From: Elainellaceae cyanobacterium
GTDB lineage: Bacteria > Cyanobacteriota > Cyanobacteriia > CAZCXK01
Assembly: GCA_051117555.1 (NCBI GenBank)
Contig: JBNPEG010000245.1
Coordinates: 1-23,505 of the forward strand
Direction of reading: 5' to 3'
Length of the DNA: 23,505 bases
Each line of letters starts with the position of its first letter. Within the stretch, counting starts at the first letter, position 1. Positions 18,170-23,020 of this stretch are shown in pieces. Both the position numbers and the translations under genes were made by a program. The notes under the pieces were generated by a model, which searched no databases, was not told where the DNA came from, and worked only from the letters and a program-made list of their open reading frames with translations.

Positions 18170-18403
18170 TCAGAGATGGAAACGTATAGCCGCATATAAT
18201 TTACAGCTTGGGATATTATGTAGAAGAAACTAATCTATTGATGCATTGGGAGTCTAATATTATTTATTATTTTCGGATTTGCAGTGATTTCTTATGCTGA
18301 GATACTTAAGATACTCGGCTGTACTAGATGTGAGAGAACTAAGAAATAACTGAAGAACAGATTATTTTTGCTGTCTAAACTTGGGATATTTAGCCAAGAC
18401 ATC

Positions 18404-19693
18404 ATGGAAAAAATTGAGATAAAAGATTTTGTTGGAATCAAAGATATTACGTTGGAGATTAAGCAAATCAATATTTTAATTGGCCCGCAAGCGAGCGGAA
18501 AAAGTATTGTGGCCAAACTGCTATTCTACTTCAAGAGTTTTTTGTCTGAAATTATCAGTGCAGCAGAAGAAACAAGGCGAAAGACGGAGTTAGATAAAGA
18601 CTTTAAGAGGAAATTCGAAGAATATTTCCCTTCGTCTTCTTGGGGGAGTGGAAACTTTAAAGTTCGATACTCTATTGATCAAGAATTTATTGAAATTAAC
18701 AGGAAGTCCAGATCTAAGAAAAATGCACCAGAAATAGTGCTAAGTTATTCTGATTTCTATAAGAATGAATTTACTGAACTTAAAAATCTTGTGAAGCAGA
18801 CTGAAAAAGTTGCTGATCGAGATATGCAGGTCAGCATTTTATCTCGGTATAACTTTATTTATGACATACAACGCTCTTTCCTACATAAAGTGACTGAAAA
18901 GTTAGATAAAGCCGCGACCTTCTCGCAATTGTATATTCCTGCAGGTAGATCATTTTTTGCCAATCTCAAGAGCAGCATATTTACTTTCTTGTCTGATAAT
19001 AATGCTGTTGATCCATTCTTGATTGAATTTGGAACTTATTACGAAAACATGAAAAAACCTATCAGGCTAGATAGGCTGAGAAGAAGTATAAATGATAAAG
19101 AATTAAGTGATGAAATAGCTTCTTTAAACGAAAAAATTCTTTGTGGGAGGTATCTCCAGGAAGATGGAGAGGACTATCTTGAACTAGATGAAGGTAGAAA
19201 GATAAGTATCGCGAACTCTTCATCAGGACAGCAAGAAACACTTCCATTAGCTATCATTCTTGGAACAATTGCATTTATGAAGCCTAAAACAGGTGGCAAT
19301 TCCATATACATTGAAGAGCCAGAAGCACATATTTTTCCAGCGGCACAAAGAGATATGGTAGAGTTGATCTCTACTGTTTATAACTCTCGCAAAGATAGCC
19401 TTCAATTTCTCATTACAACACATAGTCCTTATGTTCTCACTGCATTCAACAATCTACTTCAGGCAGGTTTTTTGGCCGCTAATGCAACTGAAGCCAAAAT
19501 ACAAGAAATCTCTCGTCATATTCCTAAGTCAAGATTTATCAGTCCAAACGAAATCACCGTATACTCGCTGTCAGGTGGCTATTCTAGGTCTATTCTTGAT
19601 GTAGACACCGGATTAATAGATACCAACATCATTGATGAAGTATCTAATGAATTAGCAGTTCAGTTTGATAAACTTCTTGATATTGATTTATGA
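18404..19693 (+). CDS. ABC-type ATPase (AAA_15/AAA_21, OLD/AbiEii-like)
   Basis: Walker A IGPQASGKS, YIPAGRS, signature SSSGQQ, Walker B IYIEEPEAHIFP and H-loop LITTHSPY. ATG 18404 is preferred over TTG 18368. Confidence 0.93.
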   Translation: MEKIEIKDFVGIKDITLEIKQINILIGPQASGKSIVAKLLFYFKSFLSEIISAAEETRRKTELDKDFKRKFEEYFPSSSWGSGNFKVRYSIDQEFIEINRKSRSKKNAPEIVLSYSDFYKNEFTELKNLVKQTEKVADRDMQVSILSRYNFIYDIQRSFLHKVTEKLDKAATFSQLYIPAGRSFFANLKSSIFTFLSDNNAVDPFLIEFGTYYENMKKPIRLDRLRRSINDKELSDEIASLNEKILCGRYLQEDGEDYLELDEGRKISIANSSSGQQETLPLAIILGTIAFMKPKTGGNSIYIEEPEAHIFPAAQRDMVELISTVYNSRKDSLQFLITTHSPYVLTAFNNLLQAGFLAANATEAKIQEISRHIPKSRFISPNEITVYSLSGGYSRSILDVDTGLIDTNIIDEVSNELAVQFDKLLDIDL

Positions 19694-20127
19694 GAGATTT
19701 CCAAGATTGCGAGACCATTAATGATGATTTAAATATTGTTATCTCTGATTCAGGTAGTCGAAACAAGCGCAGTAAGTTCCGTTGCTACAATCCCAAAAGA
19801 GCAGCTGTAAAAGTTATTCAAGTCGATGATTGCGCTATTAAAGAAGGAGTAAGATGTGACTACTTACTTGTATTACCAAATGGGCAAGAGATTTATATTG
19901 AGTTGAAAGGTTCTGATATTAAACATGCAGTTGCGCAAATTGCTAGAGCGATCGAATTATTAGCTTGTAATTGTCATCCTATTATTAAGCTTTGCTTTAT
20001 CTCAAGTACAAGATGTCCAATTAATTCAACTGAGATACAGAATTTAAAGAAGAGATTTAGACAAAAATATAACGCACAAATAACTATCAAAAACGGAGAA
20101 ATTACTCATATCTGTGATTCAGACTGA
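19690..20127 (+). CDS. Small putative PD-(D/E)xK-fold nuclease, translationally coupled to the ATPase
   Basis: ATGA overlap with the ATPase stop. Motif VDDC..RCDYLL..IYIELKGSDIKHAVAQI fits D...ExK followed by a Q-containing helix. Basic C-terminus. Confidence 0.75.
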   Translation: MRDFQDCETINDDLNIVISDSGSRNKRSKFRCYNPKRAAVKVIQVDDCAIKEGVRCDYLLVLPNGQEIYIELKGSDIKHAVAQIARAIELLACNCHPIIKLCFISSTRCPINSTEIQNLKKRFRQKYNAQITIKNGEITHICDSD

Positions 20128-20227
20128 CTTTCTGATTTAATAACGCCAATCTCCACAAAGATCATCACTTTATGACTAGCGATCGCCAAAAATTCCACTC
20201 CATTTCTCAGATAGTAGTTAGGTACGG

Positions 20228-20256
20228 TTGTATTTCTCCCTTGAATCCTTTATGCT
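20228..20256 (+). promoter_or_regulatory. Putative sigma70-type promoter for the structured leader
   Basis: TTGTAT (20228-33), 17-bp spacer, TATGCT (20251-56). Predicted TSS ~20263, just before the 5' arm of the structure. Confidence 0.45.
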
Positions 20257-20265
20257 CTATCGCTA

Positions 20266-20428
20266 AGCGCTCAAACAGAAGCGCGCTCCCTAGAAGTGAT
20301 ACCAGCACGTTCTAGAGAGCTAATCCCCAACTGCACAACCAGTCGGAGACTACAGACTATGGTAATAGCTCCTGTAGCCATCCTGCTTTGTCATGTCAAA
20401 ATGCGGGGTGGCTTTTTGTTTGAGCGCT
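20266..20428 (+). ncRNA. Candidate structured RNA / cis-regulatory leader (basal stem enclosing four hairpins)
   Basis: AGCGCTCAAACA (20266-77) pairs perfectly with TGTTTGAGCGCT (20417-28). Internal hairpins at 20285-20320, 20327-20346, 20350-20377 and 20377-20412. The last is followed by TTTTTGTTT. Confidence 0.6.
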
Positions 20429-20454
20429 CCCATAGCAAAATAAGGAGCACATTC

Positions 20455-20691
20455 ATGATTTATCCTCCCAATCCGCCCGGTGGAGCGGACCGTTCGTCGC
20501 GTCCCGATGATGAGCGTCATACTCTGCGCATCATTGCCGTCGGGTCGCTCACCGTTGTGAACCACCATATTATGCAGATGTTTCAACTGGGCTATGCCGA
20601 ACCGGGTGAATGGTCAAAACCGTTGCCTACGGTGAATCCGAATGAGGTGATGCGGATTTTGACTAAACGCGTGATGGGCATTGGTGATTAA
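20455..20691 (+). CDS. Small hypothetical protein (78 aa) of a cyanobacterial family with a GYAExxEWS..PT..PxEVMRIL motif
   Basis: Strong RBS AAGGAG at 20442-47. Sequence includes ERHTLRIIAVGS...LGYAEPGEWSKPLPTVNPNEVMRILTKR. An in-frame upstream ATG at 20359 would give 110 aa. Confidence 0.8.
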   Translation: MIYPPNPPGGADRSSRPDDERHTLRIIAVGSLTVVNHHIMQMFQLGYAEPGEWSKPLPTVNPNEVMRILTKRVMGIGD

Positions 20692-20700
20692 TCCCTTATA

Positions 20701-20830
20701 AGGGGCGAAGCATTTCATCCATACGGGTGGGATATGACCTAAAAATTCTGATGAAATGCTTCGCCACTACTATTTCATCCATACGGGTGGGATATGACCT
20801 AAAAATTCTGATGAAATGCTTCGCCTCTAC
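20701..20830. repeat. GTAG-type REP palindrome with a 60-bp tandem duplication between convergent genes
   Basis: GGCGAAGCATTTCATC (20704-19) and GATGAAATGCTTCGCC (20750-65) form a perfect 16-bp inverted repeat. 20712-20770 is repeated at 20772-20830 with one mismatch. Confidence 0.85.
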
Positions 20831-20845
20831 GGTTGGGGGGACGGT

Positions 20846-23020
20846 TTAGGGGCGGGATATCCAATCCACATGAATCTGATATTGCTCTGGGTCGGCATCA
20901 GACACCATATCTGGGGTGAGGGCGATGCGATGAAGATCTCGGATTACGGTGTTGGGTATTATCTTACGCCGAGGGAGATTGCCGCCGAGCAAGGGCGCAA
21001 TCTGCTGCACCTGATGCCCTTGCGCATCGCTCACGGTGATTTGAACGGCGGTATTGGGAGGCGGCTTTTGCAAAAACTCCCAATAAAGGGCGATCGCCAT
21101 CTCCTGGTCATCAAGGGGATTCACATCATAGCCGAGCAACCGCGCCCGATCGCCCACTGACTGCACCACGGGCATGTCTATCTGTGCCAGGTCAGATGCG
21201 GTGGGAATGGGACCCGGATAGATGATGGCGTGATCCACACCATGAATCGAGACGGTGTGCAGGGGGGCTTGAGCAGAAAAGTAGCGGATGATGTCAGGGT
21301 CGGGGAGCGATCGCTGCAACTGGTTGATATAAAACACCACATAGTTGGTGGTGAGCCAAAACTCATCATCGGGCTCGTTGTACTTGGGCACTCGGATAGC
21401 GTGTCCTCGAAAGTAGGCAGCCAGCACGGAGCGATGCCAACTTGCCACAGTGAGTGGGTCAGAATTGGGTAATTGATTCAGCCACCGAGCCGCTCGATCC
21501 AACCCTTCTCCCTGACCAATCATGAGCACGTCTTGTGCGGCGGCTGTACCGCCCAGAATTGGATTGTAGTAGGTGATGAAGTAGGGAAATTCTGGAAGCA
21601 AAAACAGGAATTGCCCAACCGCAAGTGCGATCGCCCCAATGGTGATTCCCTTGGGATGCATCACGGGAGCAACTGACGGCGATCGCACTCGAATCGCATT
21701 CAACAGCGCTAACCAGCCAGCCGCTGCCAGGATTGCCAAAATCGGCAACACAAACGTCACATAGCGATCAATCTTGGTCTGTGCTGCTGAGAGAATGCCA
21801 AGAATGCACAGAGCCGACAGTGCCAATGCTAATAATTCCGACTGTCGATCGAGAGGAGACGATAACCCAGACCGAATATCCATACCCGTATCCGACCTGA
21901 TTTGCGGAGCATGGGTTTGCTCAACCGTTTGCCCCATTCTTTGCCCCATTCTTTGCCCCGTTCTTTGCTCAGTCCCTCGATCAGCCCTTCGTCCAATCCG
22001 TTCTCCCATTCTTAGTCCAACGTGAGGAAATAGCGCGATGCAGAGATATAGAATCAAGCCAATCTGCATCACGGGCGATAATCGAAACGCTAGCACCACC
22101 GGATAAAACAGCAGACCCGGTGAATCGGTCGGTTCTCCCCAAAAAAAGAAATCGCCTCGCGCCGATTCGTCGAGCAGTCCATTCACGATGCGAATCACCG
22201 TGTATGACGGCTGAATCCACATCACCGGATAGATGGCAATGAAGGTCACCAGGGCGGTTGCGCCCCAGCGCAGGCAGTCGAAAATCTGGCGTCGCCATCC
22301 CCGCTTTGGAAAGTTCGTGACTCCTGCCTCGGTGAGCACTATCCACAACACGATGCCTGGAATCACAAATAGCCCAATCATCTTCGAGGCAGTCGCCAGT
22401 CCGAGACAAATTCCCGATGCCACCAACCCGCGGCGATCGCCCTCATTCCTACTAGGCTCCATCGTGCTGTCCTGCTCACCTCGCAAGTAGAGCACCATCA
22501 GCAAAATTGCCAACACGCTGAAATCAGACTGAATCGCATCCGTGGTGACAAATCGCTGATAGGCCAAGAAAAACGGCTCTAGCGTAATCAAAATGACGGA
22601 AAACAGTGCGATCGTTCGTCCCAACAGCCGCCGAGTCAGCAGATAAATGCCCACCATGCAGGCAGCCGTGACTCCTGCTTGCAAGAGCCTCGGCAGCACA
22701 TAGAGACTCGCCGCAAACGGCAGGGTTTCGGTGCAAGCCCCCAGTTGTGACGGCTGATTGCCCCCCAACCCATCAGGAAACCATCGGGAAAGCTGACAGT
22801 TGACCGCCATGCCAATGCCGGTGAGCCACATGTTAGGGACACCGGGATGCGGACTGCCATAAGTTCCAGCAAGGTCACCCTCCAGCAACCTGTTGATAAA
22901 GGTCGCCCCTCGCGACAGCCACTTCGCCTCATCGGAATTGAGGGGAATGGCGATCGCCCAGACCCGCAGTGCAACCGACACCACAAAAATGCTGATGACA
23001 TCAAATGAACGGTTTTTCAC
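20846..23020 (-). CDS. GT-C membrane glycosyltransferase (family 39 / PMT-ArnT-like) with C-terminal extracytoplasmic domain
   Basis: First-loop NSDEAKW, HPGVP, LEPFFLAYQRFVTTDA, GLATASK, KIDRYV and YYNPILGG motifs. Many TM helices. C-terminal RLLGYD..ALYW beta-sandwich motif. Confidence 0.88.
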   Translation of the reverse strand: MKNRSFDVISIFVVSVALRVWAIAIPLNSDEAKWLSRGATFINRLLEGDLAGTYGSPHPGVPNMWLTGIGMAVNCQLSRWFPDGLGGNQPSQLGACTETLPFAASLYVLPRLLQAGVTAACMVGIYLLTRRLLGRTIALFSVILITLEPFFLAYQRFVTTDAIQSDFSVLAILLMVLYLRGEQDSTMEPSRNEGDRRGLVASGICLGLATASKMIGLFVIPGIVLWIVLTEAGVTNFPKRGWRRQIFDCLRWGATALVTFIAIYPVMWIQPSYTVIRIVNGLLDESARGDFFFWGEPTDSPGLLFYPVVLAFRLSPVMQIGLILYLCIALFPHVGLRMGERIGRRADRGTEQRTGQRMGQRMGQTVEQTHAPQIRSDTGMDIRSGLSSPLDRQSELLALALSALCILGILSAAQTKIDRYVTFVLPILAILAAAGWLALLNAIRVRSPSVAPVMHPKGITIGAIALAVGQFLFLLPEFPYFITYYNPILGGTAAAQDVLMIGQGEGLDRAARWLNQLPNSDPLTVASWHRSVLAAYFRGHAIRVPKYNEPDDEFWLTTNYVVFYINQLQRSLPDPDIIRYFSAQAPLHTVSIHGVDHAIIYPGPIPTASDLAQIDMPVVQSVGDRARLLGYDVNPLDDQEMAIALYWEFLQKPPPNTAVQITVSDAQGHQVQQIAPLLGGNLPRRKIIPNTVIRDLHRIALTPDMVSDADPEQYQIHVDWISRP
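21916..22023. repeat. In-frame 12-bp tandem repeat inside the GT-C gene
   Basis: TTTGCCCCATTC x2, TTTGCCCCGTTC, TTTGCTCAGTCC and degenerate flanking units. Encodes RMGE-RIGR-RADR-GTEQ-RTGQ-RMGQ-RMGQ-TVEQ. Confidence 0.8.

Follow-up and report, generated by a model that had tools for sequence, protein, structure and literature searches.

What is the structured sequence that stands directly ahead of a small open reading frame (ORF) in a cyanobacterial genome, and could it control that ORF? The locus lies on a 23,505-nt contig of an Elainellaceae cyanobacterium (JBNPEG010000245.1, assembly GCA_051117555.1), which we analyzed over its full length and call the window. A preliminary description, made from the sequence alone, had placed at 20228-20691 a promoter, a leader RNA with four hairpins inside a 12-bp basal stem, a ribosome-binding site (RBS) and a 78-aa ORF, and had compared the arrangement with phage immunity RNAs. 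We conclude that the region is one copy of a new structured 5' leader RNA family of filamentous cyanobacteria, apparently undescribed. As to its function, we favor, with a probability of roughly 0.6, a riboswitch-like leader that would act in cis and control translation of the small protein by hiding its Shine-Dalgarno (SD) sequence; for this leader we infer a start site, the switching and its direction, and an effector.

Results

A covarying five-helix RNA domain precedes the 78-aa ORF

The -35/-10 pair, the 12-bp stem, the four hairpins, the RBS and the ORF are all present where the preliminary description had placed them. The perfect 12-bp stem (AGCGCTCAAACA at 20266-20277 with TGTTTGAGCGCT at 20417-20428) extends to 16 pairs in the minimum free energy (MFE) structure and, as helix P1, closes a five-way junction with hairpins P2 to P5 (Table 1). 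A U-rich run, TTTTTGTTT, lies directly 3' of P5. The sequence AAGGAG occupies 20443-20448, and the ATG at 20455, whose ORF ends with a stop codon at 20689-20691, is 26 nt past the stem. The plus strand folds at -74.2 kcal/mol, against -51.2 ± 4.6 kcal/mol in 200 dinucleotide shuffles, none of which was as good (z -5.0). The reverse strand also folds strongly (z -4.5), so folding energy alone cannot assign the strand. The strand is fixed by the frequent G-U pairs together with the asymmetric score of a covariance model, R1, which gives ~150 bits on the plus strand and at most 30 bits on the minus strand.

R1 was built from the 17 copies of the RNA in the source genome (alignment A1) and a hand-set five-helix structure. 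In A1 alone, 15 of 44 pairs change on both sides. A larger alignment (A4) comprises 66 copies that were fitted to the R1 structure, a procedure that favors that structure; here 35 of the 44 pairs are compensatory and every helix is supported. Standard pairs are formed in 87.8% of the cells of A4, as opposed to 33-42% when the 3' partners are slid by one to three columns, and the covariation score is 0.366 vs. 0.168 ± 0.005 after shuffling (0/500). P1 is replaced wholesale between lineages (AAGCGCUCAAAC/GUUUGAGCGCU vs. CCCAAAAA/UUUUUGGG). Seven unpaired columns are at least 90% conserved, U20321 and A20323 in the P2/P3 junction among them; other highly conserved unpaired bases are G20283 and C20284 before P2 and bases of the P4 and P5 loops. 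A leader peptide starting at the AUG in the P5 loop was considered and rejected, as this codon is not conserved (CUG, UUG or ACG elsewhere) and its frame differs between copies.

Searches with R1 matched 31 of 151 sampled genomes of the class, in several families and with up to at least 18 copies per genome. Comparison of two tables shows the protein family also in 28 of the 30 RNA-positive genomes besides the window's own, and the protein is more widespread than the RNA (101 of 301 genomes). A degenerate DNA pattern scan was too loose, returning, among the matches listed, mostly chance matches in unrelated phyla; when nine of its loci were re-tested with R1, three were real (Thainema, Elainellales and an uncultured cyanobacterium). 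Rfam 15, used with gathering as well as E-value thresholds, has no match in the whole window. A search restricted to 20150-20900 gave only chance-level scores (E at least 0.96), none meaningfully overlapping the RNA, and 20 loci with diverse members gave nothing relevant, with one unrelated tRNA. The preliminary description had proposed an undescribed cyanobacterial structured leader coupled to a small protein and had suggested checking it against Rfam and by covariation upstream of homologs; the proposal is supported by both, as no Rfam family covers the RNA and the structure upstream of homologs is conserved and covaries. We found no description of this RNA or protein in the open-access full texts that were searched.

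A simple consensus scan flags no promoter and no terminator at the locus; the -35 box has only three of six consensus matches, and P5 exceeds the loop limit of the scanner. The 64 upstream regions aligned on the RNA start give the consensus TAC..TTGT.TT, ~17 nt, TAT.CT, 8 nt, AAGCGCTC. The claimed -35 and -10 boxes coincide with these conserved blocks, which recur in the distant members L057, L071, L078, L080 and L103. The conserved promoter-like block thus supports a predicted start site near 20263.

A 12-16-bp perfect inverted repeat bounding a 164-bp multicopy element, both strands of which fold well, is also what a miniature inverted-repeat transposable element (MITE) would present if its terminal inverted repeats mimicked a basal stem, and a chance palindrome might look similar. 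However, the orientation of the element to the downstream gene is constant, and covariation is seen in the internal helices as well as in the end stem itself, which means that lineages do not share the 'repeat' sequence. The model is specific for one strand owing to G-U pairs, the identity between copies (68-84%) falls short of near-identity, and no target duplication was noticed. The covariation and orientation data contradict a MITE, and we give a MITE or a chance palindrome next to no chance of being the explanation.

Predicted alternative pairings reach the Shine-Dalgarno sequence

For each leader, we searched the RNA for the longest perfect complement of the 20 nt before the start codon. 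For most leaders this complement of the SD window is found on the P4 3' strand, with 0-4 nt between its end and P5. In the subgroup of the window GCUCCU pairs with AGGAGC, and in a second subgroup ACACUCCU pairs with AGGAGUGU. The anti-SD changes along with atypical SD sequences (CCAAGGAGAU in L074, CCAUCAAGAGA in L080 and AACAGGAGUAA in L059), and the longest matches are 10 nt in L074 and L096 and 11 nt in L059 and in L080, which has an AAGAGA-type SD. For 33 representatives below 80% identity, the native duplexes between the P4 strand and the SD have a mean energy of -11.4 kcal/mol, compared with -8.0 kcal/mol for cross-paired ones, and this was equaled in 0 of 5000 permutations.

The P1 3' arm has another possible partner besides the 5' arm, namely a mimic of that arm which lies downstream, just before the SD. 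This second alternative helix is 10-11 bp long in L078, L090, L098 and L106, and 7 bp in the window. Native duplexes of this kind average -8.6 kcal/mol vs. -7.2 kcal/mol for cross-paired ones (2/5000 permutations). A possible third pairing, read by eye, is a local hairpin that would sequester the P1 5' arm (GCUCA...UGAGC and equivalents).

These pairings suggest how the leader might work. The transcript would start a few bases before the 164-nt domain, from the conserved promoter, and would have two folds open to it. In state A, all five helices would be formed and the SD free. In state B, the P4 3' strand (GCUCCU, 20368-20373) would pair with the SD region AGGAGC, while the P1 3' arm would fold back on the mimic of the 5' arm (20414-20420 with 20434-20440); the resulting three-way junction would hide the RBS of the 78-aa gene. 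When the SD helix is forced in folding, a three-way junction is obtained in which this helix encloses P5 and the P1 fold-back hairpin, P1'. An effector would then tip the equilibrium between the folds and thereby govern how the small protein is translated; candidates are a small molecule, a protein and a physical cue. Over 30 leaders, state B minus state A amounts to +0.5 kcal/mol on average, which makes the two nearly isoenergetic, and state B is the more stable in 9 of the 30.

P5 and its U-rich tail may add premature termination. The terminator/antiterminator of the preliminary description, in which the U-tract could instead pair with the 5' arm of the stem, stands only in part: a U-rich tract does follow P5 in the window (7 of 9 nt), but its average over the 33 representatives is 4.8 of 9 nt, with at least 5 U in 24 of them and at least 6 in 7. 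The alternative pairings that have comparative support, P4 3' strand with SD and P1 3' arm with downstream mimic, are also different from the one claimed.

A further pairing was seen within the ORF. Codons 4-5 (CCU CCC) contain a CUCC at 20465-20468 that pairs with the GGAG of the SD in the MFE structure, as a second, local SD-masking hairpin; it is not in every paralog (CCA CCU in copy C7).

The module is multicopy and its gene is under selection

In the source genome, the repeated unit extends from 20222 to 20694, with no repetition beyond these bounds. With R1, 17 copies are recovered in the orientation of the gene (E at most 1e-22), and all 17 precede the start of a paralog of the 78-aa ORF, although one runs off a contig end and one is possibly frameshifted. 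Two ORF fragments, C23 and C118, are without the RNA. Over the RNA the copies are 68-84% identical, and the ORF paralogs have synonymous divergences (dS) of 0.5-1.9 and a median ratio of nonsynonymous to synonymous divergence (dN/dS) of 0.14 over 74 pairs, all of which indicates old, selected paralogs and not recent repeats. The 78-aa ORF is a real gene under purifying selection. An all-against-all BLASTP comparison of ORFs within 5 kb of 18 loci returned no shared neighbor family beyond the ORF and its antisense shadow, which makes the module self-contained. Contig ends are a few kb or less away from many copies, partly because some copies are near-identical.

Three sister genomes have 26, 12 and 9 matches to the protein. 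Synteny with G002 and G003, both sister genomes, is lost where the glycosyltransferase gene ends, and no clean insertion boundary is seen there. In addition, an insertion of ~100 nt between the RNA and the SD is found in the two own-genome copies C95 (L017) and C219 (L023) and in the relatives L036, L039, L040, L043 and L048; it starts with AAGGCA-type short repeats, and the SD behind it is still complementary to P4.

Such a copy number raises the question of whether the RNA has a catalytic or mobility role, either as a new self-cleaving ribozyme or as the RNA of a small selfish cassette by which promoter, RNA and gene would spread as one. Several families of small genes are associated with the RNA, some of them helix-turn-helix (HTH)- or replication-initiator-like by weak matches, the protein is found on 12 cyanobacterial plasmids, many copies are near contig ends, and the junction nucleotides are highly conserved. 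Yet no transposase, reverse transcriptase or integrase is a conserved neighbor, homology ends at 20222 and 20694 with no target duplication noticed, the paralogs are old by their dS, there is no clean insertion scar in G002 or G003, and no Rfam ribozyme matches. We consider a role of this kind very improbable.

The same RNA precedes several unrelated gene families

The gene downstream of the RNA is usually, and not always, a member of the 78-aa family (family A). Among 50 RNA matches in a first set of loci, 44 are followed by a family-A ORF within 700 nt, as are 21 of 40 matches in a further set; of the six exceptions among the 50, one, L110, has a truncated family-like ORF. All 20 RNA copies in G111 (9), G093 (9) and G077 (2) precede family A. 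In contrast, none of the 17 copies in G050 does: ~11 of them stand ahead of another protein, ~125 aa long and bearing the motif ..LRFEQWANVLFVHRKDRGGQFISYR.., two stand ahead of a protein weakly matching HTH_36 (E 0.011) and the replication-initiator-like phrog_1032 (E 0.0044), and four have no clear ORF. The three copies examined in G028 precede a family-A gene, an HTH-like gene and a protein of yet another family. Copies without a clear ORF downstream include L107, L243, L246 and L248. The same RNA thus precedes at least three unrelated small-protein families, and this combination of one domain, variable platforms and unrelated genes is compatible with a general sensor or regulator and not with a protein-specific partner.

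The ten G050 leaders examined have a closed P4 and ORFs without a clear SD, ~100-200 nt downstream behind inserted palindromic repeats. By eye, their P1 3' arm can pair with a downstream complement, which is followed by AUUUUGG-like runs. The ~125-aa proteins of G050 (L233-L249) form a multicopy family with an HTH-like N-terminus, behind spacers full of GGGCAGGGAAACCCTGCCC-type palindromic repeats, and have no match in Pfam, PADLOC or PHROG.

A second reading takes the RNA to be chiefly a stand-alone small RNA, either terminated by P5 with its U-rich tail or excised from the leader; its CUCC loop would act in trans on the RBSs of its own and paralogous mRNAs, following the logic of phage P1 c4. 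In G050 the next ORF is 100-200 nt away and the RNA has no SD partner in cis, and the copies without a clear downstream ORF would fit as well. P5 is G+C-rich and, as given above, has at least 5 U behind it in 24 of 33 representatives, there is complementarity to a downstream SD, and P1 c4 is described as a trans-acting repressor of Ant synthesis (PMC8546580). Against this, the terminator scan is silent on P5, whose U-tract averages only 4.8 of 9 nt, and termination in the P1 3' arm would delete the best-conserved helix. The copy-by-copy covariation of SD and anti-SD is most simply a matter of pairing in cis, though it would give specificity in trans too, and the protein occurs in no phage record. 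We therefore regard a stand-alone small RNA as distinctly unlikely.

The 78-aa protein belongs to an unnamed family

The protein has a variable, proline-rich N-terminus and a conserved core of ~55 aa, and its family comprises 437 clusters at 50% identity. It matched no family at E 0.1 or better in Pfam-A, NCBIfam, PHROGs or PADLOC, and no toxin, antitoxin or defense model among them. The AlphaFold2 model, with a mean predicted local distance difference test score (pLDDT) of 78.9, has a strand-helix-strand (beta-alpha-beta) core. No significant structural neighbor was found either by Foldseek against the PDB (best E 0.32, none at 0.001) or by VIA-align (best Z 3.8); such poor matches are no evidence of a new fold. 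The ESM Atlas returned only unnamed cyanobacterial clusters. A Pfam search of 16 longer relatives gave a single 580-aa fusion with TIR and WD40-like domains, possibly a gene-call artifact. A longer frame of 131 aa from a GTG at 20296 overlaps the RNA and was rejected, as the ATG behind the SD is where homologs begin.

In other lineages, the same protein is encoded without the five-helix RNA and a single hairpin precedes the gene. In L062-L069, L072, L073 and L075, this is a conserved hairpin, CCCAGUCC...GGACUGGG, before an AUGGAGU-type SD, and the gene is paired divergently with one for a ~70-aa protein (MGAKNRI..ITRYRFW..) that, judged from sequence, reads as HTH-like; this looks like a different control solution for the same gene. 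In two RNA-less loci the divergent neighbor reads as ribbon-helix-helix-type, and in others the gene follows an XRE-like HTH gene. The protein is also carried by 12 cyanobacterial plasmids, among them plasmid D of Trichormus variabilis ATCC 29413, where it is beside ParG and a replication-related gene, and by none of the phage records searched. The recurring regulator neighbors suggest a product whose level matters.

One may ask whether RNA and protein are instead a specific pair, with the protein binding its own leader in the style of ribosomal-protein autoregulation or the RNA neutralizing a harmful protein in the style of type III toxin-antitoxin systems. The linkage of RNA and family A is tight (17/17 in the source genome, 44/50 in the first set of loci, and 20/20 in G111, G093 and G077), the RNA-less genes adjoin small HTH- or ribbon-helix-helix-like regulator genes, and on plasmid D the gene adjoins ParG and a replication-related gene, which suggests a product needing tight control. 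However, the same RNA stands before at least three unrelated protein families, it is a single domain with no tandem repeat array, and the protein has neither a toxin, antitoxin or defense match nor a significant structural match. A dedicated RNA-protein pair seems to us improbable.

Layout and neighborhood of the locus

The features of the module are collected in Table 1. The window also contains HIP1-type GCGATCGC sites, which together with the relatives of the protein assign it to a filamentous cyanobacterium related to Elainellaceae.

Table 1. Features of the leader RNA and its gene; positions refer to the window.
Feature	Position	Strand	Basis or remark
Promoter-like block: -35 TTGTAT, 17-nt spacer, -10 TATGCT	20228-20233 and 20251-20256	+	Sequence and upstream consensus
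Five-helix RNA domain, P1 closing the five-way junction of P2-P5	20265..20428	+	R1 151.8 bits, covariation, fold z
P1 5' arm	20266..20281	+	Partner 20413-20428 (MFE); 10/11 consensus pairs change on both sides in 66 copies
P2 hairpin	20285..20320	+	20285-20298 with 20306-20320; 10/13 pairs compensatory
P3 hairpin	20324..20349	+	Conserved junction CUAAY before P3; MFE and alignment
P4 hairpin	20350..20377	+	5/6 pairs compensatory; 3' strand holds anti-SD GCUCCU, 20368-20373
P5, long G+C-rich hairpin, followed by UUUUUGUUU	20377..20412	+	7/9 pairs compensatory; terminator-like in the window copy
P1 3' arm	20413..20428	+	Alternative hairpin P1': 20414-20420 with 20434-20440
Shine-Dalgarno region	20443..20448	+	Complementary to 20368-20373
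78-aa ORF	20455..20691	+	Disordered proline-rich N-terminus, conserved C-terminal beta-alpha-beta domain, unnamed family

Just upstream of the module, at 18368-20127 on the plus strand, two overlapping genes encode a 441-aa ATPase (AAA_15/AAA_21) and a 145-aa protein. The pair matches the candidate defense system PDC-M29 of PADLOC (PDC-M29A, E 2.5e-27; PDC-M29B, E 2.3e-6), and the ATPase also resembles AriA, GajA and PtuA. Downstream, at 20846-23020 on the minus strand and convergent on the module, is a gene for a 724-aa glycosyltransferase of PMT_2/PMT type. Between the ORF stop and this gene lie two tandem 60-bp units (20701-20830, plus strand), 98% identical and both forming a hairpin whose arms are 19 nt long; four other contigs have weaker copies, and sister genome G002 retains the pair beside its orthologous module. 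The pair may serve as a bidirectional terminator or represent a small dispersed repeat. In G002, a 252-nt copy of the glycosyltransferase 3' end is joined to the orthologous module on another contig while the full gene is located elsewhere, which points to a segmental rearrangement.

Discussion

Translational riboswitches combine a conserved aptamer with an expression platform that sequesters the SD. The leader described here resembles them in its P1-closed multi-helix domain, its conserved junction nucleotides and strong covariation, and in mutually exclusive pairings of the P1 3' arm and the SD, which are present in many though not all members. The platform varies between members, and several copies per genome stand before different genes, as in riboswitches. 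Unlike riboswitches, the anti-SD is inside the conserved domain, in P4, and not in a separate platform; there are unusually many copies (17 in this genome and at least 18 in others), Rfam has no such family, and the genes suggest no ligand. Multicopy cyclic-dinucleotide riboswitches exist in other phyla, and a new aptamer would resemble them. In the boldest version of our reading, the 164-nt domain would be the aptamer of a new riboswitch class that senses a signaling molecule or stress-related metabolite and switches, in parallel, at least a dozen small regulator-like proteins from several families with no relation to one another. We put this forward tentatively and think it somewhat unlikely; a variant on the same footing would make the domain a new self-cleaving ribozyme.

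Several observations weigh against the leader model that we favor. In the window copy itself the helix between SD and anti-SD has only 6 bp and state A is favored by 7.0 kcal/mol, so this copy would need a strong effector or may be mostly ON. Complementarity to the SD is weak in L104, L106, L108 and L109. The ten G050 leaders examined have a P4 without CUCC, and nine of them, when scored, gave weak duplexes with the SD window (+1.4 to -3.3 kcal/mol); SD sequestration is thus not universal. The ~100-nt insertions part the RNA from the SD in C95, C219 and five relatives. The downstream genes give no clue to a ligand, none having a known function. The A4 alignment, as said, leans toward the structure to which it was fitted, and paralogs and relatives are not independent samples. 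Finally, a search of sequencing runs for this stretch returned no RNA run, only soil and stromatolite DNA in which it has a small share, and is silent on expression.

Other known systems share single traits with the leader. The type I toxin mRNAs hok, tisB and aapA1 have locked 5' UTRs and, as proposed here, the SD of a small protein is masked by long-range pairing within its own leader; in our case, however, the protein is soluble and not a hydrophobic peptide, and no antisense RNA gene was seen, none having been searched for. As in type III systems of the ToxIN kind, an RNA element lies directly upstream of a protein gene with a terminator-like hairpin between them. Here, though, the RNA is a single non-repeated domain and not a tandem-repeat array, and the protein lacks an endoribonuclease signature and is matched by nothing in Pfam, NCBIfam or PADLOC, which places it outside type III toxin-antitoxin systems. 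Membership among MITEs is likewise contradicted by the covarying end stem, the constant orientation, the 68-84% identity of the copies and the lack of a noticed target duplication.

The phage analogy drawn by the preliminary description, to P1 C4 and P4 CI, holds for one trait. Like those RNAs, this is a structured leader RNA with a segment complementary to a downstream ribosome-binding region. Unlike them, it has no phage context, its protein being found in no phage record; it is chromosomal and multicopy, the domain is larger (164 nt, five helices), and the pairing is most simply in cis. The title of one study reportedly calls c4 a '77-base processed antisense RNA'. The c4 RNA of the phage P1 immI operon is described as acting in trans and repressing Ant (PMC8546580).

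A recent screen of 202 cyanobacterial genomes for conserved RNA structures was confined to the surroundings of 931 KEGG ortholog groups (Geissler et al., 2026; PMC12873609). It is comparable to the present work in reporting cis-regulatory structures beside cyanobacterial genes, some of them overlapping the SD, as at sbtA. Because only the neighbors of KEGG groups were searched, a leader before unannotated small proteins would lie outside its search space. The leader described here would work like a translational riboswitch or another SD-sequestering leader, and it belongs to none of the families against which it was tested.

It has become rare to meet a large bacterial RNA family with strong covariation that Rfam lacks. 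The present family combines a complex five-way junction with a readable regulatory logic, which makes it directly testable with reporters and structure probing. The RNA marks several unannotated families of small cyanobacterial proteins, some of which look like DNA-binding regulators, as probably co-regulated, and it offers a starting point for the function of these proteins and for the signal that controls them. The leader could also be used as a part for controlling genes in filamentous cyanobacteria. Should the effector prove to be a small molecule, the family would add a new riboswitch class to a phylum that matters both ecologically and in biotechnology.

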